The translations under genes and the position numbers were made by a program. Positions 3,759 to 19,151 of a DNA stretch of 64,000 nucleotides are shown in pieces; within the stretch, counting starts at the first letter, position 1; every line of letters starts with the position of its first letter. The notes under the pieces were generated by a model that was not told the origin of the DNA, did not search any database, and was given only the letters and a program-made list of their open reading frames with translations. The stretch comes from a virus. Taxonomy: Duplodnaviria; Caudoviricetes. The stretch lies in the IMG/VR virus record IMGVR_UViG_3300031993_000016. One strand, given 5' to 3'.

Positions 3759-5576
3759 CTATACACGGAATTCATCAGGTCTATCTATCACTACAACATA
3801 TTCAGAAGACTTTCTAAAATGCGATTTCGACTTCAATTCTTCTACCACATTATCTTTATACTTCTCAGTTTTATCTACAACAAATACATATCGCTTACAC
3901 TTATAATGCTCTAATACAATATCAATCCATTCGTCACAAGTGTGAAATTCAGTTTCATTGTTATAGATTTCTTTTTTGTTATATGGTGGGCAGGTAAGTA
4001 GGCACGAGTATTCATAGTAGCTATCTAAAATGTTTTCAACAGTGACAGAAGCATTTGTTAAGCTGAAAAATTTTAATATCTCATGACTTTCAGATACTGC
4101 AGTTGAATTTAAATCTCGGCCTACATATTGTTTACCTGTAGAGCATACACCTAACAACCGTCCAGAAAATCCGGAAAACGGATCACAGATACAATCAAAA
4201 TCATTTAAGTATTTCAATGTTAAGTATTTAGCTAATATAGGATTAAACACAGACACTTTAGGTGCAATCTTAGATATGTTGAAACCGCTAAGTACTTTAG
4301 ATGGATCAACATCATTTTGATATATTAATCGGTTAGCTATACACTTCTTAAGCAATTCATCAGATTGCCATGCTTCATATGGAGATACATGACCATCGAC
4401 TTTACAGTGATAAATTGACGGATGAAACTTACGAATAACCGATATCCCCAGTTTGCAATACGGATTGTAAGATGTTGATGTATAGTCACACAGATGTGCA
4501 TAATCATAATAGAGTCGATCATCTGTGTAATTAGGGTACGGAAATTCAACAGACCTACACCAACTAAATATATGAGAATCATAATCAAATAAGTTATTAT
4601 CTATTTGCTTCAACATGTAAATCAAGTTAGATAATCCAGATTCAAAATCAGATTCTATTAACAACACAAATATATGATCATCTGGCACAAGTGAAACGCG
4701 AACATCATCATAATCATCTCGAACCTTCTCGCCACCAGGATCACTTATGTAAGAATGCCAATATATTCCATCACAGTCTATGAGCATCTTATATTTTGGT
4801 AAATACACATCAAATTCGTGCGAGCATGTACCATCGGTTAGCACATGATGCTCAACACAGTCAATGTTGAACTCTTGTAATATTGAATGTAATCGAGATT
4901 CCAGTTTGCTTAAGTTTTTAGAATTCCGTGATTGTTTAGCACGAAGCTCAGGGCACTGCATAGCATAAGGATAACCTGTGCGACTTATATTAGTTTGCAT
5001 AGTTTGCGCAATACATGCTGAACTTGTAACTGTATCGCGTATCTTGTCTCGTACTTCTGGTACCTGAGCAATATTAGTATATTTCGTCCCGTATTTCATT
5101 TGGATTGTTTTTATTTTAGCTGGTTCATTAGATATCGCTTTATCATGCAATAGCTGTCGAACAGAACTAGCTTGTGAAGCAACTTTAACACCATATTTTG
5201 CTAAACAGGTTTGTTCTCGGAGCTTATTTGAACATGCTTGAGAACAACATCTAATAGGGTCATATTCTAATTTTATTTCAACAGGAGTGCCGCATATAGG
5301 ACACGGATTAAAATGTTTATTGTCACAATAGCGTTGCATGCTACTTCTAGGTGCAAATAATTTACCGCATAGTTCACATTTCTTTAAAGTTTTAGCAATA
5401 GTTTGTTTACGAAGCTGTGCTGCACATTTTTTAGAACAGCATTGTTTAGGATGTTTATAATTCCATATGAAGCTAGATTGACATACAATACATCTTCGAT
5501 AATGAACATTGTTGCAATAAGCAGCAGTACCAACTCCTTCAAATGGTTGACCGCATTCTTTACAATATTTTATCAC
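3759..5576 (-). CDS. Zn-ribbon/KYGV-repeat protein with a Vsr-like (EDxHD/DUF559-type) endonuclease fused to a C-terminal DNA methyltransferase-like domain
   Basis: Several CxxC pairs; TCLAKYGV repeat; HEFDVYLPKYKMLIDCDGIYWH nuclease motif; DPFSGFSG (SAM-binding motif I) and TCPPY (motif IV variant). Confidence 0.75.
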   Translation of the reverse strand: MIKYCKECGQPFEGVGTAAYCNNVHYRRCIVCQSSFIWNYKHPKQCCSKKCAAQLRKQTIAKTLKKCELCGKLFAPRSSMQRYCDNKHFNPCPICGTPVEIKLEYDPIRCCSQACSNKLREQTCLAKYGVKVASQASSVRQLLHDKAISNEPAKIKTIQMKYGTKYTNIAQVPEVRDKIRDTVTSSACIAQTMQTNISRTGYPYAMQCPELRAKQSRNSKNLSKLESRLHSILQEFNIDCVEHHVLTDGTCSHEFDVYLPKYKMLIDCDGIYWHSYISDPGGEKVRDDYDDVRVSLVPDDHIFVLLIESDFESGLSNLIYMLKQIDNNLFDYDSHIFSWCRSVEFPYPNYTDDRLYYDYAHLCDYTSTSYNPYCKLGISVIRKFHPSIYHCKVDGHVSPYEAWQSDELLKKCIANRLIYQNDVDPSKVLSGFNISKIAPKVSVFNPILAKYLTLKYLNDFDCICDPFSGFSGRLLGVCSTGKQYVGRDLNSTAVSESHEILKFFSLTNASVTVENILDSYYEYSCLLTCPPYNKKEIYNNETEFHTCDEWIDIVLEHYKCKRYVFVVDKTEKYKDNVVEELKSKSHFRKSSEYVVVIDRPDEFRV

Positions 5577-7103: not shown

Positions 7104-8509
7104 ATGAAGTTTTGCACAAATTGCGGCGCACAGCTACCTGAATCAAATCGTCAGGACGATGTCGATCGTGTGCACAGAAAGCAGCAGTATCTAAACGAGA
7201 AGCTACATGTTTAGCACGATATGGTGCTAGAAATGTGATGCATATTGATAGGTTTGTTAAGAAAATCCAGCATACATTCTTAGAACGATACAATACAAAA
7301 TGTGCTATGGATGTACCTGAATTCAAACAAAAACAAGAAGATACTATGATAAAACTATATGATGTAAAATCGTATGTGCTTACAGATGAATATATGCAAA
7401 ATGCACATTTTAGAGAATCTAATACGCAGAAAGCTATAGCATCTAAATTGAATCAGATAAATATTCAAACAGGGTCAGAACTTTTGCTAGATGATAAAAA
7501 ATTTGATATCCCTATCTTAGGCACAAACATATTACTGGAAATAGATCCGTCGTACACGCATAACATAATCGGGAATCACTGGAATAAGAAAGGGTTAGAG
7601 GAAACCTATCATCTAAATAAAACAGCAATTGCAGCATCGCATGGCTATCACTGTTTACACGTATTTGATTGGGATAACATAGACGAAATAACTAGTAGAT
7701 TATGCATAACACAGAAAATAGCAGCAAGAAAATGTAAGGTGATCTTCCACAATGAACCAACTCCTACAGTCAATTTAATATATGAAGATAAAGTCATTCT
7801 ATCTGTACAAGCTCAGTTATCAAATATAGCAGCATACGAATATGAATTAACAATGATGTTTAAACCAAACATACAAGTGGTTGGTGGTGTAAGTCGAGCT
7901 ATCAAGCATATCATGCAACATCTACACACAAATAAAATATTTATAAAGTGTGATTTGTCAAAATTTTCTGGTGAATGCTATGAGAAAGCTGGTATGAAAG
8001 CAGTTGCAATAATACCTCCACAAGAACATTGGTCTAAGAGCATGTATGAAATGCAAATAGATGATAAAATAAATGCTGAAAAACTAATACAAGATCATTG
8101 GTTACCGGTTTACGACTGCGGATATGTAATATATAGTTATGTTGATGGTTATCCTACACAAACATCTCAACCTTCATTAAAAGAATACTATCAAACTATT
8201 GCGAACAGCATATCTAAATCAAAAGAAAGATTATGTGACTTTTGTCATCAGCCATTTATACCAGCATCTAACAGACAACGATACTGTAAACGTGTGCATA
8301 AGAGAATATGCCCTGTATGCGGAAAAGAATATGTAGAAGATAATGTTGAAAATTTGAAACGACCTCCAGTTGCGTGTTCATATGCATGCAGGGTGAAGAA
8401 AACTCAATCCACTAGTCTTGAACGATATGGATGCACCGCACCTGGTAATTCTACGCAAGCCAGAGAAAAAGCTAGAGAAACACGGCGAAACAAGCACATC
8501 TACAACTAG
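7104..8509 (+). pseudogene. Frameshifted Zn-finger/KYG-repeat Vsr-like endonuclease with a degenerate GNAT-like domain
   Basis: MKFCTNCG... continues as GRCRSCAQKAAVSKREATCLARYGARNV into ORF 7235-8509 only after a 1-nt shift near 7150; EIDPSYTHN and WLPVYDCG motifs. Confidence 0.7.
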
Positions 8510-11646: not shown

Positions 11647-12291
11647 TTGTACAATAACGAAAAACGCATTGAAACTAATCTACTTAAATATAAGGTTCAA
11701 AATGTAGCCCAGCTTCCAGAAATTCAAGAGAAGCGACGAAAGACATTTGAGACAAAGAGAACTACTATTCTATTCTATCAAGAGCCTCGTGTTAATGTGA
11801 TTGATGGACATGATTTAACTGTATATCGTCTCAATAAAGATGTAGCAGACTGTTGGCTCAATAAGTATCATCCATTTAAAGCTCCAAAAGGTAATGTGTT
11901 ATGTTTAGGGTTAGTTAAAGATGACATTATATATTGTATAATGACATTTAAGAAATCACGTGATTCTCAATATGTAGCAGAGTTATCTCGCCTTTGGATG
12001 CTTCCAACCTATCAAATTATAGGTGGATACGATATTCTTTCAAATGAAGCGTCTCAATTAGGCCTGTACAATATTGTTGCTTATGTCAATATGTCATTTG
12101 AGAATTATAAAGATTATGAGTCGATTGGTATGAAGTATGTTAGAGATGTGCAGAGAACGAAGTGGTGGGTTAGAGGTGATGCGAAGATATCAGATGCTTC
12201 TCGTCGTCAATCAAAATTAAAACAGGAAGATATGACCGCTTCTGGATATCTTCCTGTATATGATTGTGGTATTAGGGTTTATGTGGTGTGA
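11647..12291 (+). CDS. Stand-alone Mom-like GNAT-domain paralog lacking the nuclease domain
   Basis: One KY(K/G)V repeat, then AELSRLW...IIGG...IVAYVN...GYLPVYDCG as in the C-termini of 13419-14942 and 14954-16852. Confidence 0.65.
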   Translation: MYNNEKRIETNLLKYKVQNVAQLPEIQEKRRKTFETKRTTILFYQEPRVNVIDGHDLTVYRLNKDVADCWLNKYHPFKAPKGNVLCLGLVKDDIIYCIMTFKKSRDSQYVAELSRLWMLPTYQIIGGYDILSNEASQLGLYNIVAYVNMSFENYKDYESIGMKYVRDVQRTKWWVRGDAKISDASRRQSKLKQEDMTASGYLPVYDCGIRVYVV

Positions 12292-12312
12292 TCATTGATT
12301 CAAAGGCTGTGT

Positions 12313-12636
12313 TTACCTAACGAATCCAATCTCAAGTTCTCTGCATTTCTGCAGGAAAAGATCACGAAGTTCTTCAGTACCTTCATAATATTGAGCGATT
12401 TCAATTAATTCATCATCACCCCAATCATCAATATTGAATGTTATATTATTGACCATATGCTCAAATGTTTCATTATCTAAAGGTCCACCAATATCAAACT
12501 TATACCCCTCAAGAATGTCAGTAACTACATCTTCAAGTTCATTGACATTATAAACAGCATCCTCGCCTTTCACATACTTCTTATTTGTTCCGCATGATGC
12601 CTTTACACTCTGTGGATATACTTTAAATCTTTTCAT
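12313..12636 (-). CDS. Hypothetical protein (MKRFKVYPQSVKAS)
   Basis: GAGGA RBS. Confidence 0.7.
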   Translation of the reverse strand: MKRFKVYPQSVKASCGTNKKYVKGEDAVYNVNELEDVVTDILEGYKFDIGGPLDNETFEHMVNNITFNIDDWGDDELIEIAQYYEGTEELRDLFLQKCRELEIGFVR

Positions 12637-12720
12637 TGTTTGCGTTCCTCCTATATAATAATATGTAATATACCATGATCAACAGCTTCATTGATCTATA
12701 AATATAAGTTGAGCTAGAAT

Positions 12721-13014
12721 TTAAACTAACTCCATTATTTGCATCATTGTATGGGCCATCCTCTGATGTTTAGCTGAAACTTTTTCAGGTACTTTATCTT
12801 CAGGATATGCAGTGTTTAATGCATAAGTTATATCGTCTTCATCAATCGAACGAGCGTATTTTAAAGATGACTCTACAAGATCACATTTATAATAGCTCCA
12901 ATGATATTTGTCTCGGAGTATCATATATATTGCGCCGCGAATTTCAGCAACATTACTTGGGTCGTCTACTTTGTAGATGTTATTGTCTATTGTTGATTTG
13001 ATAAATCTTTTCAT
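12721..13014 (-). CDS. Hypothetical protein with MKRFIKST N-terminus
   Basis: AAGGAG RBS; class L motif at 13103-13114. Confidence 0.7.
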   Translation of the reverse strand: MKRFIKSTIDNNIYKVDDPSNVAEIRGAIYMILRDKYHWSYYKCDLVESSLKYARSIDEDDITYALNTAYPEDKVPEKVSAKHQRMAHTMMQIMELV

Positions 13015-13105
13015 TGTGCGTTTACTCTCCTTGTCTATTAGATTCTTCTACTTATATGATCTCTGTATCTTCTCTTTATACATCTGACGAACTTAATCAT
13101 TTATA

Positions 13106-13313
13106 TTAAAGGTTGTTATTAAGTTGATATTCCCATCTTATTACTCCGGAATCAAATACTTGAACATATCCGTGAGACTCCATGACTCCTCGCTCTGTAT
13201 AGTTAGCGTCATGTAAATCATCAAATAAGTTTGGTAAATTAGATTTTTGACATTAATCTACGTGATGATTTAGTTTCAAATTCATCACCGCATATTGCAC
13301 AGATTCGTTTCAT
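13106..13313 (-). pseudogene. Internally deleted third tandem paralog of the nuclease-GNAT genes
   Basis: N-terminal MKRICAICGDEFETKSSRR is joined out of frame to CQKSNLPNLF...HGYVQVFDSGVIRWEY, which matches the C-terminus of the 632-aa ORF. Confidence 0.8.
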
Positions 13314-13321
13314 TATAGATA

Positions 13322-13400
13322 CCTCCATGAAAGTTTATATTGAAAGGAAGTAATCTAGAATTCATGGCTTCTAGAAACACTGGCCGGTGCTGTCCTTCCT
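13322..13400 (-). promoter_or_regulatory. Structured leader element, copy A (SD-masking pseudoknot)
   Basis: ACCGGCCAGTGTT-TCTAGAA-GCCATGAA-TTCTAGA-TTAC; loop CCATGAA is complementary to TTCATGG overlapping GGAGG. Confidence 0.7.
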
Positions 13401-13418
13401 ACAATATCTGTAACGATT

Positions 13419-14942
13419 TTAGGTTAAACTACCATATACATACACCGCTTGTCCGCAATCATAAACTGGTAACCACCCGTTATCTAACATGAGCTGCTCA
13501 TTAGAAGTACCTTTACCATAATTGGCACCAAATAACTGATCATAACCACGCTGATTAAGCAGATTCTGTGTGATCTTTTTATCATCTTTTGACCATATTT
13601 TATTAGGTTCAGCAATGTATGTCAATTGCATACCAATTGCTTCATATACATCCCCACGAAACTTTGCTAAATCGCAATATGATATAACAGAATCATTCAG
13701 ATGATCTGATCGAAAATGTTTGAATAGTTTAGACGCGCCTCCTATGATTCTATACCTTGAACGCGTACATAATCTAAGTAATTCAAAATTATACTTATTA
13801 TTATATCTAGGTTTTCCAAATGTCATCAATTGCATAAGCTGATTGTCATAATATAACCCATAACAAATCTCTTGCCCTTTACAACTACCCTGAATATGAA
13901 ATTGCGCTGTAAATTTATTAGCATCAGATTTAGATACCTGTCGAATTTCACAATTTCTTGCATAAATAGATGTCTTAGGTATTAGCATATTAAGAATATC
14001 ATCCCAATTATCCCAATCAAATACATGAATACATCTGTACCCATTATCTAAAGCAAGTTTAGTCTTAGTTAAATGATAATTAGGATCTAATCCATCAGAA
14101 TCCCAATGATTACCAAAAGAATTATGCGTATATGTAGGATCAATTTCAATGAGTATGTCACCTGATTTAAGATCATAAGAACATTTATCTATGTGAAATT
14201 CAAATTCAAATTCAATGTTATTCGCTTCAAGCACGTCTCCGAAGCGTTTATTTATATTAGAAATAACAGATGAAGCATTTCGGCATTCGTCTCGCATACA
14301 ATTATAAGGTACACCATATTTATCTAAGCAAACTTGGGTAATCTTTTGCTTTACAATAGGATTTTGCGATGGATTAGAATAACCCGTTTCACGTAGCCGA
14401 TTTGATACAATCTTTGAGCGAATTTCAGGTACAGCTAACACGTTTTCGTAGCCGTATCTTTCTAAATTGGTTTGTTTGGCCTTTTCATGTATTGTATCAC
14501 ATTGAAGCGGGACTCTTACACCATAATGAGATTCAACCGAATCCTGTTGTTTAGAATGAATTTCAGATACTTGCATTGGGTTATCTACACCATACGTATC
14601 TTGAAAATGTTGTTTTATTTTTGATTGAATCAAGACAGATTTACTAGGATTATCAACACCATAGCGTTCTATACAAGTAGCTCTTATCCTTGCTTTAACT
14701 TCTTGCAACTGATTTGGATTATCTACACCATATTTCAATTGCATAGTTTTCTTACGAGATAGATTACCTAATTGTTGCCCACATTTCAATGAACAAGTTT
14801 TAGATGTGTATGGAGGTTTTCGTATAAAAGTTTCTCCACATACACAACAAACAGAAGTGTGCTCAGATTTACACACTTCTGCTCGTTTACTTTTAGCAAC
14901 AAATTGTTTACCACACAATTTACATATCTTAATATATTCCAT
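13419..14942 (-). CDS. Zn-finger/KYGV-repeat Vsr-like endonuclease with C-terminal Mom-like GNAT domain (507 aa)
   Basis: Start MEYIKICKLCGK after AGGAGG; about 7 YG(V/Y)xN repeats; EIDPTYTHN; ELLRLC, IIGGASKLF, ISYCD, VYDCG. Confidence 0.8.
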   Translation of the reverse strand: MEYIKICKLCGKQFVAKSKRAEVCKSEHTSVCCVCGETFIRKPPYTSKTCSLKCGQQLGNLSRKKTMQLKYGVDNPNQLQEVKARIRATCIERYGVDNPSKSVLIQSKIKQHFQDTYGVDNPMQVSEIHSKQQDSVESHYGVRVPLQCDTIHEKAKQTNLERYGYENVLAVPEIRSKIVSNRLRETGYSNPSQNPIVKQKITQVCLDKYGVPYNCMRDECRNASSVISNINKRFGDVLEANNIEFEFEFHIDKCSYDLKSGDILIEIDPTYTHNSFGNHWDSDGLDPNYHLTKTKLALDNGYRCIHVFDWDNWDDILNMLIPKTSIYARNCEIRQVSKSDANKFTAQFHIQGSCKGQEICYGLYYDNQLMQLMTFGKPRYNNKYNFELLRLCTRSRYRIIGGASKLFKHFRSDHLNDSVISYCDLAKFRGDVYEAIGMQLTYIAEPNKIWSKDDKKITQNLLNQRGYDQLFGANYGKGTSNEQLMLDNGWLPVYDCGQAVYVYGSLT

Positions 14943-14949
14943 ATTGATA

Positions 14950-15014
14950 CCTCCTACATAGGTATAATAAGAGAGTAATCTAGATGATGTAGGCATCTAG
15001 AAACACTGGCCGGT
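14950..15014 (-). promoter_or_regulatory. Structured leader element, copy B (SD-masking pseudoknot)
   Basis: ACCGGCCAGTGTT-TCTAGAT-GCCTACATC-ATCTAGA-TTAC; loop CCTACAT is complementary to ATGTAGG overlapping GGAGG. Confidence 0.7.
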
Positions 15015-16852
15015 TGATTAGAGGAAGGCGTGTATTCCCATCGGATAACTCCTGAGTCAAATACACGACCATATCCATGAGCTGTCATTATTTCAACTTC
15101 AGTATTGTGTTCGACATCAATAGTATCATCGCGAAGCAGCTTCTTAAGATTAGATTTCTGACATGTTACTCGATTATAATAGCATTCAGAATTCGGATCA
15201 ACCCATACGTATCCCGGATCTGATCGATGTATTTCAACAAAGCCTAAAATCTTGTAAAGATTTCCAGAAGTAGTGGCAATATCGGAAAAAGAAACGATTT
15301 TATCAGGATACCAATGTCTACAGAAGTAGCTGAATAGTTTGCTTGCACCTCCTACAACATTGTAATTTAACTTAGAACAAAATCTAGACAACTCCCAGCT
15401 ATCTTCATTGTTGATCCGACCACTTAAATTTCGCATTTTACCAAATGTCATGAGAGAAACTAATTCATCGTTATCATAAAGACCTAACCGTATGGAACAC
15501 GTAGTAGGACCTTGTCTATGATTGATGCGAAGAAACTCTCGAGCATCTGACCAACTAACTTCTCTTAGGTGCAAGTTCCGTGCAAATAGTTTACGAGTTG
15601 TGTTACCTAATGCATTTCGTAACATGGAAACCATGATATCTTTATGATTAACCCAATCGTATCCAAATACATGTATAAGTCGAATACCTGCTTGCTGTGC
15701 CAAATCTGACTTATCCTTATGATAAGATTTAGGTACAATATTACCTTCATGCATGAATGCAATATCGGAATTGTGCGTCCATGTAGGATTACACTCAATT
15801 CCAAGCTTATAATCCGGCAAGTAAATATCAATTTCATAAGGGCTTATGATAGATCTAGAATGCGGTATAATAACTGCATCAGGTACGGTTGTATGTATGA
15901 TGTTGGTGATATCTTGCTCCATATTAGATATGTTACATTGTACCAAATCATGTAAACAGTATTTTACTATGTAATATGATATAGTTGTGTCACAGACTCC
16001 AGTAGATTCGGATAGTTCCTTATAAGTTGGTTTATGATCAAATTGAGTTAGTATGTAATTTTTAGGATCTGATTTAAATTGTTCGTAGTAGTTATATCTA
16101 TCGGGATTTACTACAGTTGTTTTCAGATACTCCGGTGAAAATATATAAGCAGGGCCTCCATATTTTTTAAAGTTAGTTTCAGTGCGTTGTTTGATGATTT
16201 CATCAGCTTGTGCTGCATATTCTACACCATAACGCTTTAAGCATGTAGCTTTCACTTTAGCTTGAATATCTTCATTGGATAGCGCATTCTCATGACCATA
16301 ACGTTCTAAATTAGTGGATTGTATATGTTGTCGTAACTCCTCAGATTGCATAGGTGATGCAACTCCATATTTATCTAGCATACCTTGCACCATTCGAGCC
16401 CGTATTTCCGGATCTTTAGAATAATGATCTACACCATAAAGTTCTAAACTATGTTGTTTTATTCTTTCTTGAATCTCAGCACTTTGAGATAAATTATCTA
16501 CACCATATCGAGATTTTACAGTCTGATGAACCTTTTCTTTAATATCACTGCGCTGTAGTGGATTAGCTGCTCCATATCGTTCTAAATTAGTAGCTTCTCG
16601 TTTCTGTTGAGCTTGTAATTTAGCTTCAGCAGATCTATTTTGATGTCCCTCGGAAATAACAATCTTTCGGCATTCTGAACATGTTCGAGGCCCATATTTC
16701 ATATAATTTACATAAGATTCTTTTACTAACAACGGTTGGCCGCATCGAGCGCATGGTCTATAATGATCATCTCCACAAGACTGTGCTTTTGCAGAATGCG
16801 CCATAAAAACTTTACCACACCATACACATTTTCTTTCACCATAGTTTCGCAT
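14954..16852 (-). CDS. Zn-finger/KYGV-repeat Vsr-like endonuclease with C-terminal Mom-like GNAT domain
   Basis: CxxC pairs; about 7 (R/K)YG repeats; YEIDIYLPDYKLGIECNPTWTHN; WELSRFC, VVGGASKLF, VSFSD, VFDSG. Confidence 0.8.
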   Translation of the reverse strand: MRNYGERKCVWCGKVFMAHSAKAQSCGDDHYRPCARCGQPLLVKESYVNYMKYGPRTCSECRKIVISEGHQNRSAEAKLQAQQKREATNLERYGAANPLQRSDIKEKVHQTVKSRYGVDNLSQSAEIQERIKQHSLELYGVDHYSKDPEIRARMVQGMLDKYGVASPMQSEELRQHIQSTNLERYGHENALSNEDIQAKVKATCLKRYGVEYAAQADEIIKQRTETNFKKYGGPAYIFSPEYLKTTVVNPDRYNYYEQFKSDPKNYILTQFDHKPTYKELSESTGVCDTTISYYIVKYCLHDLVQCNISNMEQDITNIIHTTVPDAVIIPHSRSIISPYEIDIYLPDYKLGIECNPTWTHNSDIAFMHEGNIVPKSYHKDKSDLAQQAGIRLIHVFGYDWVNHKDIMVSMLRNALGNTTRKLFARNLHLREVSWSDAREFLRINHRQGPTTCSIRLGLYDNDELVSLMTFGKMRNLSGRINNEDSWELSRFCSKLNYNVVGGASKLFSYFCRHWYPDKIVSFSDIATTSGNLYKILGFVEIHRSDPGYVWVDPNSECYYNRVTCQKSNLKKLLRDDTIDVEHNTEVEIMTAHGYGRVFDSGVIRWEYTPSSNQPASVSRCLHHLDYSLIIPM

Positions 16853-16911
16853 AGATAACCTCCTTTAATAAATAAAAGGTTTGTTGATTTGATTACTATA
16901 ACGAATTTAAC

Positions 16912-16944
16912 AAAAAACAAGACCCAGATTGCTCTGAGTCTTGT
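16912..16944 (-). terminator. Intrinsic terminator after the sheath gene
   Basis: CAAGACTCAGA/TCTGGGTCTTG hairpin plus T-run. Confidence 0.75.
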
Positions 16945-16970
16945 GTTGAAACAAATTGTATCAAGTATGA

Positions 16971-19151
16971 TTAGCTTAATGAACTAAGATCAATACCTGC
17001 ACCGGCAGGTAATGCAATAAGATCTACGTAAATATCGTTTATAACTCCATTTACTAGGAGCCAAATTTTTCCAATAACAGTGTTAGCATTAACATGATCT
17101 AATTCATCAATGTCCGCTGACATCTGAACACGATAGCCATCGATTGCACCAACATTCTTCATTGTATCAAGAAGTGGTGTCACACCTGCATAAAACTTAT
17201 TATAAGCCTGACCATTATTATATTGGAATGTGATGCTTATTCCGCATTTGTAAACTACATCTTCTACTGCATTTACTAAGAAACGAGTTGAAAGATTTGC
17301 AAGTGCCTGATAAGTTGCAGGAGGTACTTCAAATAATGTTGAGTTACCCCAGATGTTTGTGCCGAGGTCTGGGATTGTTGTAAGTACGTTTACAGATACT
17401 CCGTCAAGTTTCTGCCATTTATCAAGTAATTTCTTTGGTACTGTGTAATCAAGTTTTCCAATTCTTACATTGTGTTGTCTATTTGTTGGAAGTGCCCATT
17501 CATACTGTGTAGGCTGATTGAGGATCTGTGCTCTTTGTATCATAAGTGCTGCGAATGAAGGAGATGCTTCACTCATTCTGCTTGTACCTACATACTGGAA
17601 TTGTGTCCATGGTGCAAAGAATCCACAATGTGTGTGGAAGAGTGATCCATTTACATCAAGTGCTGCGTTTACAGGTGTTACACGAGCTAACATCTGTACA
17701 TAACCTGCACGATCTGGATTAGCTTCATCCTCAATGTGAACGAACTTTCTTTCTACCATATGCGGTACATCAATGTAACCTGTTGCACATCTGCTGTAGT
17801 ATGCTACGTCCATTATCTTAAGGTTAAGCGGAGAGACTGGAATTGGACAAGATCCTGATGATGGTGTAGGATAATATGTACTGATGATTGTAGAATTATC
17901 TGTATACATGAAATAATCTTGATCATCCCAACCTGGGCTTATTACACGATTCGGGTTGTAAGAAAGTTTGTCTTTGAGAAGATCAAATACACCACCTACA
18001 GGCTGTCCATTTGAATCAACATAAGTACCGCCTACAAGATGTGTAAATAACCATTCTCTATAGTATAATGAACATTTTGTATCGTCATCAAGTGCAGCTT
18101 GTACAGTTGAATCAGCAACAGCGGTTGGATACGTATAAGTAGCTGAATTTGCAGCTACTTGGTAAGCTTCTGCCCAATCATATCTAGGTTTTGCAATGTT
18201 TTCAAATGACATTGTTCCGCTAGTATATGTTGTGATATAATCTGTACCAGCAGTAGCTGTTGTACTTCCAAGTATAGCAGCTGTACCAGTTGATGGAACT
18301 TCATCCCACTTTGTAGCGTCCCAGGCACCTGTTGTATCATCAGCCTTGCATTTATATACGTTACATTCATGATATACAAGTGCATCTTTTGCATATGTAG
18401 CAGTTGCATCAAATGCTGTAACCCCTGCAGTAGATACTACAATGTCCGCAGAAGTTGAAGACTCATCAACTGTACCAGTGATATTTGTAATATCCCAGAA
18501 CTTAGATTCAACTTCTTTGTAGTAAAGAATACTGTCTGTTGAATTAGCAGCATTGAATACAAGTGTCTTTGACTCAGCTGCAGTTTTTACACCACTAGAA
18601 TCTACAATATAAGTAATAATGTTCCAATAGAACTTAGTTGTTTGTGACTCCCTATCATAATAAGCAACTTTGCTAACTACAATCTGGAGATTATTTCCAA
18701 ATGTTCCAGGATACTTTGCTCTGAAACTGATAGTAGCTGCACTATCTGTATTATTCTTATACTGATACTGCGTAAAGCTGCCCTGTGCATAAGTTCCAGG
18801 GCACAGACGACATACAAGTATATCATAACCAGCAGTGAGTAATGTAGTTGCTATCTGATATGAATAATCTTTTGCAAGTCTATAACCTGCAGCAGGTCCA
18901 CGATAAGTAGATACAAATGCATCAAGTCCTGCCTGTGTAGCAGGAAATCGCTGCCAAGCGGTTTGCTCAAGCATATCGCTTACAGCATCACCATATCCAG
19001 CCCCACTTGGCTGAATACCAGAAGCAGCAGTTGGATCAAAGTATCCAGGACCCCAGCAAGATGTAATTGGAAGTGCTACGGTAGCATATCCACCATCTCC
19101 AACAGCCCAAGAATAATTTGTGCTGATTTCATTTATGACAATTTTAGCCAT
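16971..19151 (-). CDS. Tail sheath protein
   Basis: MAKIVINEI N-terminus; WGP; AKYPGTFGNNL; C-terminal IWGNSTL...LSTRFLVNAVEDVV sheath domain. Confidence 0.9.
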   Translation of the reverse strand: MAKIVINEISTNYSWAVGDGGYATVALPITSCWGPGYFDPTAASGIQPSGAGYGDAVSDMLEQTAWQRFPATQAGLDAFVSTYRGPAAGYRLAKDYSYQIATTLLTAGYDILVCRLCPGTYAQGSFTQYQYKNNTDSAATISFRAKYPGTFGNNLQIVVSKVAYYDRESQTTKFYWNIITYIVDSSGVKTAAESKTLVFNAANSTDSILYYKEVESKFWDITNITGTVDESSTSADIVVSTAGVTAFDATATYAKDALVYHECNVYKCKADDTTGAWDATKWDEVPSTGTAAILGSTTATAGTDYITTYTSGTMSFENIAKPRYDWAEAYQVAANSATYTYPTAVADSTVQAALDDDTKCSLYYREWLFTHLVGGTYVDSNGQPVGGVFDLLKDKLSYNPNRVISPGWDDQDYFMYTDNSTIISTYYPTPSSGSCPIPVSPLNLKIMDVAYYSRCATGYIDVPHMVERKFVHIEDEANPDRAGYVQMLARVTPVNAALDVNGSLFHTHCGFFAPWTQFQYVGTSRMSEASPSFAALMIQRAQILNQPTQYEWALPTNRQHNVRIGKLDYTVPKKLLDKWQKLDGVSVNVLTTIPDLGTNIWGNSTLFEVPPATYQALANLSTRFLVNAVEDVVYKCGISITFQYNNGQAYNKFYAGVTPLLDTMKNVGAIDGYRVQMSADIDELDHVNANTVIGKIWLLVNGVINDIYVDLIALPAGAGIDLSSLS

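Follow-up and report, generated by a model that had tools for sequence, protein, structure and literature searches.

Introduction

The question raised by a 64,000-nucleotide stretch of DNA from a virus of the Caudoviricetes (IMG/VR record IMGVR_UViG_3300031993_000016), the whole of which is called the window below, is how the RNA that lies in front of a homing endonuclease gene governs the translation of that gene. Among the mobile elements of large phages, homing endonuclease genes are the principal ones, and their control has so far been described only case by case in T-even phages. Two copies of a leader, both on the minus strand, are found in the window in front of nuclease reading frames, and a preliminary description of the DNA treated them as a two-copy element in which a pseudoknot masks the Shine-Dalgarno (SD) sequence. 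In the present work the leader proves instead to be a widespread companion of homing-endonuclease cassettes, recognized by a covariance model in over 60 distinct sequences, whose sources are large uncultured phages in IMG/VR, JGI metagenomes and Logan/ENA contigs together with a few metagenome-assembled genomes (MAGs). The comparison of these sequences establishes a three-way-junction fold, its covariation, the partner-specific pairing of a hairpin loop with the SD region and the association with nuclease genes. It is probable that the element is a conserved, self-contained 5'-leader RNA which clamps the SD by means of a helix between two loops, L2 and L3, and so represses nuclease translation in cis; a repressing or throttling role of this kind is what the arrangement of the sequences suggests.

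The fold of the leader RNA

The fold was derived from RNAalifold (25 diverse sequences), a structure set by hand and a covariance model, R1. In 5' to 3' order the leader consists of a promoter, the 5' strand of helix P0, the trinucleotide GAC, the hairpins P1 and P2, the trinucleotide UUA (UAA in two lineages), the 3' strand of P0, a G-poor spacer, a short P3 hairpin and the AUG. P0 has 5-6 base pairs (bp) and is closed by an invariant G-C pair; P1 starts from invariant A-U and G.U pairs, which are followed by covarying pairs; and P2, with 6-9 bp, is fully variable and joins P1 without a linker, so that the junction has 3 + 0 + 3 unpaired nucleotides (nt). The junction domain takes up 60 nt, and the full leader is small, at 80-95 nt. 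The spacer that follows P0 is 12-25 nt long and contains only 6% G, and beyond it lies the arm complementary to the loop of P2 (the arm is called L3 and the loop L2), which pairs with L2 over 6-9 Watson-Crick bp, contributes the first two or three nucleotides of the SD and has its end most often (mode) 9-10 nt ahead of the start codon. In P3 an anti-SD sequence on the 5' side is paired with the remainder of the SD on the 3' side, as in ACCU/AGGU, UUUCUC/GAGAAA, AACU/AGUU and ACC/GGU. Since the L3 arm is thus flanked by the P3 stem, what was initially described as a pseudoknot is better called an L2-L3 loop-loop (kissing) interaction in which the complete SD is paired: the pairing of a hairpin loop with the SD region stands, while the plain H-type knot gives way to a three-way junction and a P3 stem with kissing loops.

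In the window the leader is represented by one complete and one truncated copy, whose parts are as follows.

13406-13416, minus strand: promoter-like motif TCGTTACAGAT, a diverged copy of the recurrent TCGTTATAG, ending about 6 nt 5' of the P0 of copy A
13344-13403, minus strand: copy A, a complete three-way-junction domain (cmsearch with R1, full model, 69.2 bits, E = 3.6e-16)
13400-13395 with 13350-13345, minus strand: P0 of copy A, AGGAAG/CTTCCT (RNAfold; a covarying helix in homologs)
13394-13392, minus strand: junction GAC of copy A
13391-13376, minus strand: P1 of copy A, with loop CGGCCA at 13386-13381 (RNAfold)
13375-13369 with 13360-13354, minus strand: P2 of copy A, TCTAGAA/TTCTAGA, with loop GCCATGAA at 13368-13361 (RNAfold)
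13353-13351, minus strand: junction UUA of copy A
13311-13343, minus strand: expression platform of copy A, comprising the G-poor spacer, the L3 arm, the SD remainder AGGT (13324-13321) and the ATG (13313-13311)
14976-15016, minus strand: copy B, a 5'-truncated junction domain (cmsearch with R1, 25.4 bits, model positions 12-52 only)
15001-14995 with 14985-14979, minus strand: P2 of copy B, TCTAGAT/ATCTAGA, with loop GCCTACATC at 14994-14986
14940-14975, minus strand: expression platform of copy B, with P3 predicted by RNAfold between ATACCT (14965-14960) and AGGTAT (14952-14947), and the ATG of the nuclease gene Hef2 at 14942-14940

The 19-mer ACCGGCCAGTGTTTCTAGA shared by the two copies has exactly two matches in the 64 kb, at 13370-13388 and 14996-15014, where 0.01 are expected and none of 100 shuffles reaches two. 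The loop complements of 7 nt, each running into GGAGG, are exact in the sequence as first described: CCATGAA (13367-13361) of copy A is the exact complement of TTCATGG (13331-13325), and CCTACAT (14993-14987) of copy B is that of ATGTAGG (14959-14953), both targets adjoining AGG. The additional closing helix AGGAAG/CTTCCT of copy A is likewise real, and is the P0 which covaries in homologs. The P3 of copy A is weak, at 3 bp by a script count that permits G-U pairs and a 1-nt offset.

The fixed nucleotides of the family can be written G-GAC-AG / UU / UUA-C; that is, GGACAG, the UU that closes P1 and U(U/A)AC are identical in 63 of 63 distinct sequences, a count in which part of the invariance is by construction (see Discussion). 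The invariant 5' segment of the preliminary description therefore holds for these junction nucleotides and fails for the P1 loop, in which CGGCCA is replaced among relatives by GACG, UGCA, AGCU-type sequences or CCGGCC. The junction is truly conserved and the P1 loop is not, and the loop was rejected as a universal recognition element because of this variation. It is often self-complementary, as in the GGCC within CGGCCA, UGCA (in two independent lineages), AGCU and CCGGCC, and such loops could serve in RNA-RNA dimerisation by loop kissing, or could reflect a palindrome in the DNA. Examples of the P1 loop are located as follows.

13386-13381, minus strand: P1 loop of copy A in the window
L003:1126-1183, minus strand: P1-loop example in a related locus
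L017:5733-5792: P1-loop example in a related locus
L126:8100-8159: P1-loop example in a related locus
L153:504-566: P1-loop example in a related locus

A second kind of complementarity is seen between the 3' side of P0 and the initiation region. Leaders of the L006/L011 type (L011:6310-6391, in the group with the TGGTAAAAT promoter) carry TGACACC, made up of the 3' arm of P0 and three further nucleotides, which is a perfect complement of a GGTGTCA between the L3 arm and the AUG; the alternative helix would compete with P0 and resembles the expression platform of a riboswitch. When the 3' arm of P0 with its adjacent spacer is compared to the region after the L3 arm, the duplex with a leader's own region has -6.1 kcal/mol as against -4.35 kcal/mol (p = 1.4e-4).

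Covariation and loop-SD pairing

The helices are supported by covariation far above the controls. In the seed alignment, A2, 93.9% of paired cells are filled by pairs, compared to 64.0% in shuffles, and the covariation score is 0.778 compared to 0.189 (a value reached by none of 500 shuffles), while controls in which the partner strand was slid give scores of 0.06-0.14. The alignment of the 63 distinct model matches, A5, gives similar values, with 94.7% paired as against 60.9% and a score of 0.815 as against 0.181. Invariant and scattered G.U pairs allow the pairing on the sense strand only, as is expected for an RNA.

The columns of L2 and L3 were aligned inconsistently by MAFFT (alignments A1 and A4), and the statistics for loop-SD pairing and for P3 were therefore computed by script, with cross-partner and slid controls. 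For each of 36 non-redundant loops the longest run of Watson-Crick pairs with the loop's own downstream region was taken; these runs have a mean of 6.4 and reach at least 6 in 30 of the 36, whereas the runs between loops and the downstream regions of other leaders have a mean of 3.9 and reach at least 6 in 44 of 1260 combinations (3.5%). The P3 stem has a mean of 3.97 bp in its own context, 2.70 between cross-paired flanks and 1.90 between slid flanks. The SD is thus buried by L2-L3 pairing and the P3 stem in at least 30 of the 36 non-redundant leaders, directly 5' of a homing-endonuclease open reading frame (ORF). The four compensatory changes that distinguish the loop-SD helices of the two window copies are now backed by dozens of independent loop/SD pairs in other phages, in which the complementarity is kept, and a single compensatory step can be recognized between close relatives, where CTCTAAC/GTTAGAG is matched by CTCTAAT/ATTAGAG. 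The turnover extends to all parts of the pairing: in homologs the P1 pairs CAC/GTG become TGC/GCA, the P2 helix TCTAGAA/TTCTAGA becomes TCTACTT/AAGTAGA or TCGGCAG/CTGCCGA, and the loop/SD pairs become CCTATAT/ATATAGG or CCTGGAA/TTCCAGG.

Distribution among phages

The leader was sought by patterns built on its core, by the covariance model and through the proteins encoded downstream. The core-pattern scan of IMG/VR gave 72 loci, of which about 54 are genuine; a further 48 loci (about 40 genuine) came from metagenomes and 10 from genomes, where the three genuine ones are MAG contigs from Lysobacteraceae, Thermoguttaceae and Bacteroidetes bins. About 18 of the 72 IMG/VR matches and about 7 of the 10 genome matches are chance matches in GC-rich sequence, which were discarded after the model search, and the retained loci are confirmed by R1 with E-values of 1e-16 to 1e-5 that are rough, having been obtained with a shortened model calibration. 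The census is biased toward the subtype with the CGGCCA loop. A first metagenome pattern in which the TCTAGA stem was fixed had no matches because this stem covaries, and the exact 19-mer ACCGGCCAGTGTTTCTAGA is absent from IMG/VR.

About a dozen sequences were found through proteins or the model alone, and all of them keep the core. The finds made by the model only (L002b, L003b, L017b/L018b, L075/76 and L126b) retain the junction letters with other P1 loops (GACG, UGCA, AGCU-type and CCAAUCAA), and in loci found through their proteins, namely L001, L002 (three copies), L149, L150 and L153, GGACAG, UU and UUAC are kept while P0, P1, P2 and the loop/SD pair change compensatorily. Hef2 has many metagenomic homologs; the IMG/VR search with Hef2 found no close relative. 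Contigs that encode Hef2 homologs with 84% and 70% identity have the leader before the gene, and one of the loci (L002) contains three tandem Hef genes, each with its own copy of the leader. Six further homologs were fetched by protein identity, of which three have the leader, two have a promoter only and one overlaps an upstream Hef gene; the P1 loops of the three are GACG (L149), CGGCCA (L150) and CCGGCC (L153), with an unchanged junction. Together with L001 and L002a, the leader is therefore present at five of eight Hef2-homolog loci selected by protein.

One or two copies are present per genome in complete phage genomes of 134-262 kb, and host GC content and the type of SD differ widely among the 63 distinct sequences. 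In the 50,697 INPHARED genomes, BLAST with seven core variants (140-nt query) gave only chance matches in GC-rich actinophages, and megablast and blastn searches with the region and with single leaders returned nothing relevant. The covariance model has no match in T4, Aeh1, S-PM2 or Twort, and no close cultured relative of the window phage was found.

Genes, promoters and introns attached to the leader

The genes that follow the leader are mainly nuclease genes. The Pfam matches of 35 non-redundant downstream ORFs comprise 15 HNH, 8 DUF7487 (Hef-like), 3 endonuclease VII-like and 2 DUF723 proteins, members of the GIY-YIG/SegE-like kind and a few others, which means that at least three unrelated families of nucleases share one leader core. 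The complementary arm is always directly adjacent to the SD of a gene on the same strand.

A promoter-like motif always ends a few nucleotides before P0, from which it follows that the RNA probably begins at P0. The type of promoter varies with the phage group: TCGTTATAG is found in the group of the window, TGGTAAAAT in a large marine group, and TATAAT/TATAAATA-like sequences elsewhere. The motif directly upstream of copy A, which had been assigned to a promoter in the preliminary description, is real and recurrent, since TCGTTATAG occurs about 10 times in the window; it also stands before the leaders in L001, L002, L037, L042, L149, L150 and L153.

In one case (L084) a group I intron contains the leader together with an HNH ORF in its P8 loop, where they align as an insertion, and the possibility that the leader is a part of the group I intron core (P3-P9) was rejected on this ground. 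The surroundings of this leader (L084:446-2316) form a dense array of at least three group I introns, one of which holds the leader and the HNH gene, and elsewhere (L012:1640-2767) three tandem group I introns stand directly upstream of a leader that is followed by a 15-codon GIY-YIG-like stub. No intron was found near most leaders, including both window copies. The occurrence of the leader both with free-standing genes and within an intron indicates that promoter, leader and nuclease ORF constitute a portable cassette.

Orphan leaders also occur. Two of them (L075:2065-2125 and L076:1278-1338, both on the minus strand) have an intact junction domain behind a TCGTTATAGTAT promoter and are followed only by a terminator-like hairpin, with no complementary arm, SD or downstream nuclease gene. 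They are probably scars of lost cassettes; in L075 the complementary arm has been lost along with the gene.

The nuclease genes of the window

The window codes for a portal protein and a terminase, and also for a DNA polymerase, a clamp loader and a recombinase of the UvsX-like kind. The minus strand carries, in this order, a sheath-like gene (19151-16971), a terminator (16944-16917), Hef1, Hef2, a nuclease-gene relic and two small ORFs. The features that concern the leader are as follows.

13419-14942, minus strand: Hef2, a predicted 507-aa Hef-like homing endonuclease with DUF7487 and a Mom-like C-terminal region, served by copy B
14954-16852, minus strand: Hef1, a predicted 632-aa Hef-like nuclease with Pfam and PHROG matches, whose reading frame crosses copy B
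13112-13313, minus strand: relic of a Hef-like nuclease gene behind copy A, with a 24-codon N-terminal stub (13313-13239, stop included) and a C-terminal fragment (13252-13112)
16855-16944, minus strand: region upstream of Hef1, with an intrinsic terminator at 16944-16917, ATTCGTTATAGTAA as promoter motif at 16906-16893 and a simple hairpin, CCTTT/AAAGG, that overlaps the SD

The assignment to the Hef family rests on DUF7487 repeats with an N-terminal CxxC zinc finger together with a match to phrog_3339/Hef. These features are present in the sequences, with E-values of 2e-29 to 4e-34 for PF24308 and of 7e-79 and 2e-110 for phrog_3339 (2.3e-29 and 6.8e-79, respectively, for Hef2), while the Mom-like C-terminal match is weak. 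The tblastn matches, of 24-31% identity, lie in phages of Campylobacter, Klebsiella and Yersinia, where they are annotated as Hef or homing endonuclease. Since Hef1 and Hef2 are only about 30% identical, the perfectly conserved segments of the leader cannot be a by-product of a recent duplication. Behind copy A, residues 564-612 of Hef1 match 13252-13112 at 57% identity (tblastn), so the original statement that both copies precede the same nuclease family is right in that both frames belong to DUF7487/phrog_3339, and needs correction in that the gene of copy A is a relic; copy A is an intact leader that heads a dead nuclease gene. The two small ORFs downstream of the relic, at 12721-13014 and 12313-12636 on the minus strand, start with MKRFIKST and MKRFKVYP and have no family match.

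The truncation of copy B can be understood by comparison with related loci. In L001 and L002 a sheath-like gene is followed by GTTTCAACA, a promoter, a full leader and an ortholog of Hef2 (L001:2040-2140, L002:2840-2960), whereas in the window the identical GTTTCAACA and promoter are followed by the simple SD hairpin and Hef1, and the leader of Hef2 resumes only at ACCGGCC. From this point onward copy B is nearly identical to a complete leader (L002:2912-2994). It retains the P1 loop, the 3' strand of P1, P2 and UUA, and is without promoter, P0, GAC and the 5' strand of P1; the model search finds no three-way-junction leader upstream of Hef1. The synteny implies that the Hef2 leader received Hef1 as an insertion, with the promoter on one side of it and the P1 loop on the other (window 14954-16906), and that copy B, as read from the sequence comparison, lost its promoter, P0 and half of P1 through this insertion. 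Hef1 appears to have taken over the promoter of Hef2, and rival nuclease cassettes may possibly use the DNA of the conserved leader as a homing target. The presence of one nuclease gene inside the leader of another suggests that elements compete at this site.

Copy B now lies wholly within about the final 25 codons of Hef1, and the stop codon of that gene, TAG (14956-14954), falls inside the ATGTAGG arm. Ribosomes that end translation of Hef1 would do so within the L3 arm, at a distance of 11 nt from the Hef2 AUG, and would melt what remains of the clamp; such coupling to Hef1 is likely to be the present mode of Hef2 expression. At least four further Hef-like nuclease genes or fragments are situated within 13 kb (3759-5576 on the minus strand; 7133-8509, 11647-12291 and 8228-8482 on the plus strand). 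The one among these that has 605 aa also shows matches to other PHROG families in its C-terminal part.

Discussion

The reading that we prefer is that of a clamp which acts in cis. The RNA would start at, or a few nucleotides after, the cassette's own promoter and fold into the three-way junction, upon which L2-L3 pairing and P3 would bury the whole SD and so occlude the binding site of the 30S subunit. Repression would in this way be packaged so as to work wherever the cassette lands, whether it is free-standing or placed in the loop of an intron. The clamp may be relieved in either of two ways: it may be a constitutive, leaky attenuator, which is the simplest reading, or it may respond to a factor that binds the invariant junction.

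Several observations weigh against this reading and must be set beside it. About 12 strictly conserved junction nucleotides are more than a passive clamp would appear to need, which hints at a further partner. The invariance of some of these letters is partly a matter of construction, because the scans required GGACAG, CCGGCCAG and TT, and two of them also TTAC. The element is evidently dispensable, since the leader is absent at three of the eight Hef2-homolog loci (L151, L152 and L154) and the model search of the window finds no three-way-junction leader at the four other Hef-like genes. Finally, neither of the copies in the window is in the canonical state.

A first alternative is a riboswitch or a protein-responsive switch, in which the junction, and perhaps the P1 loop, binds a small molecule, the ribosome or a protein or other factor of host or phage, and the L2-L3 clamp is stabilised or broken by the binding, so that nuclease translation would be timed and not just throttled; we regard it as possible, if doubtful. 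The junction nucleotides are invariant in the 63 distinct sequences and also in those found without motif bias, a conservation well in excess of the needs of the helices themselves, and the layout, an aptamer-like conserved domain with a variable platform over the SD behind it, is that of SD-sequestering riboswitches. P0, P1 and P2 covary upstream of the expression platform. The complementarity between the 3' arm and spacer of P0 and the region after L3 would also permit alternative conformers. On the other hand, the gene context indicates no ligand or protein, the junction is very small, with its 3 + 0 + 3 unpaired nucleotides, tertiary modules that recur can reach this degree of conservation with no ligand to bind, and no riboswitch model in Rfam matches. 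The widest form of the idea, namely that of a riboswitch-like class whose junction, possibly with a dimerising P1 loop, senses a universal signal of the cellular or infection state or binds the ribosome, and so gates homing-endonuclease translation across phages of many bacterial phyla, can be put forward only tentatively.

One switch considered in the preliminary description, in which the downstream protein would regulate its own synthesis, is unlikely to operate generally, because HNH, DUF7487/Hef-like, GIY-YIG and other nucleases follow the same core. It was rejected in that capacity: an autogenous operator would have the same or an orthologous protein after every copy, and the leader is followed instead by at least three unrelated families, which argues equally against a switch operated by the encoded nuclease.

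Relief of the clamp by choice of promoter, as in T4, is unlikely. A late promoter in the spacer would here give short transcripts that lack L2 and leave the SD free late in infection, and such a mechanism is documented for I-TevI, I-TevII, I-TevIII, segB and Aeh1 mobE (PMC2988022). TATAAA does occur in 4 of 34 spacers, compared to 0.7 expected (a count reached by 12 of 2000 shuffles), and copy A has TATAAAC 8 nt before its L3 arm. Most spacers are nevertheless without such a motif, including those of the large marine group with the TGGTAAAAT promoter, and TATAAATA is not enriched in the window (15 observed, 12 expected); the clearly conserved promoter lies upstream of P0, so that its transcripts carry the whole clamp. 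On the basis of the spacer-motif and window counts an internal late promoter of the T4 kind was set aside as an unlikely general means of release, and it is plausible only in a minority of lineages.

A role in the stability or processing of the mRNA, in which the paired 5' end blocks decay that depends on the 5' end, or the junction is a site for an RNase that parts the nuclease mRNA from its neighbours, and SD pairing is secondary, is an improbable account. It would agree with the start of P0 within a few nucleotides of the predicted start site in several promoter types, and with a single-stranded spacer, rich in A, U and C and with 6% G, which resembles substrates of RNase E; it leaves unexplained the precise tracking of the SD-proximal 6-9 nt by the P2 loop and the anti-SD strand that flanks the arm, and in L075 the joint loss of gene and complementary arm ties the pairing to the initiation region of the gene. 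The last alternative is an element that acts as DNA, be it as a site for homing or recognition, as the operator of a dimeric protein or as a hotspot of recombination, with an incidental RNA fold, or else a mere recent duplication. It draws on the DNA palindromes of P2 and of many P1 loops (GGCC, UGCA, AGCU, CCGGCC), on the operator that I-TevI binds upstream of its own gene (PMC2988022) and on the exact insertion of Hef1 into the Hef2 leader, by which leader DNA can serve as an insertion site, and is highly improbable in view of the four helices and long-range loop-loop pairing that covary through a sequence turnover which a protein-binding DNA site would not tolerate, the strand-specific G.U pairs, the constant abutment of the complementary arm on the SD of a same-strand gene and the roughly 30% identity of the proteins flanking the window copies, which excludes a simple recent duplication.

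If the preferred reading of a cis-acting clamp is correct, this portable, strongly covarying leader, which HNH, Hef-like and GIY-YIG nuclease genes have in common and which operates in free-standing and intron-borne genes alike, would represent the first family of conserved regulatory RNAs among these mobile elements. It would offer RNA biologists a compact natural module, combining a three-way junction and a kissing loop, to solve and to engineer, and the leader can serve in annotation as a marker of nuclease cassettes and of their relics. The way in which selfish nucleases stay harmless also becomes testable with simple reporter constructs.

Comparison with known systems

The leader was initially thought to belong to no named class, and the comparison with Rfam 15 bears this out: no match of cmscan overlaps the leader, either in the window (12000-17000, E up to 10) or at 12 leader-bearing loci (E up to 1), save for one leader in the insertion region of a group I intron. 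Full-text literature searches likewise gave no description of a homing-endonuclease leader, pseudoknot or kissing loop, only reviews on T4 and unrelated work.

The closest functional parallel is found in the T-even phages, where hairpins that sequester the ribosome-binding site (RBS) bury the SD of I-TevI, I-TevII, I-TevIII, segB and Aeh1 mobE, both free-standing and intron-encoded genes; these hairpins limit or delay nuclease translation, protect the folding of introns (for I-TevI, their splicing), and are relieved by a late promoter inside the structure (PMC2988022). In both systems an RNA structure in cis, directly upstream of the homing-endonuclease ORF, buries the SD. The T-even structures, however, are idiosyncratic, simple hairpins without a shared sequence, while the leader described here is one conserved family with an invariant three-way-junction core and a fold that is maintained in more than 60 sequences rather than a local hairpin peculiar to each gene; it also has a long-range loop-loop clamp and a promoter upstream of the whole structure, and serves three nuclease families.

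A structured RNA with a three-way junction and pseudoknots also stands at the 5' end of homing-endonuclease mRNAs in the case of GIR1, the lariat-capping ribozyme, which is placed upstream of intron-encoded homing endonuclease mRNAs in twin-ribozyme introns (PMC2219692), and one of the present leaders is likewise situated inside a group I intron. GIR1, a ribozyme of eukaryotes, is large and has its relatives among group I introns, whereas the junction domain of 60 nt is found in bacterial viruses, has no similarity to it and gives no indication of catalysis.

Architecturally, the leader is comparable to small riboswitches in which a structured domain of conserved sequence precedes an SD that is engaged in a tertiary pseudoknot or loop-loop helix. 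SAM-II/V, preQ1-II/III and guanidine-III are SD-sequestering pseudoknot riboswitches, and guanidine-II/IV and the L2-L3 contact of purine riboswitches provide kissing loops. The pseudoknots of riboswitches usually involve conserved nucleotides, whereas the pairing sequence of the leader varies freely and covaries lineage by lineage; no Rfam model matches it, and its context suggests no ligand. Translational operators such as those of T4 gene 32 and of E. coli rpsO/S15 have leader pseudoknots that are bound by the encoded protein, and proteins typically recognise features such as a G.U pair conserved close to the junction of helices. The leader resembles these operators in having a pseudoknot-like pairing that adjoins the initiation region, and differs from them in that the encoded proteins are of unrelated families, which makes a shared autoregulator implausible. 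The probable function is of a known kind, that of the SD-sequestering leaders of homing endonuclease genes, and the RNA family itself is new.

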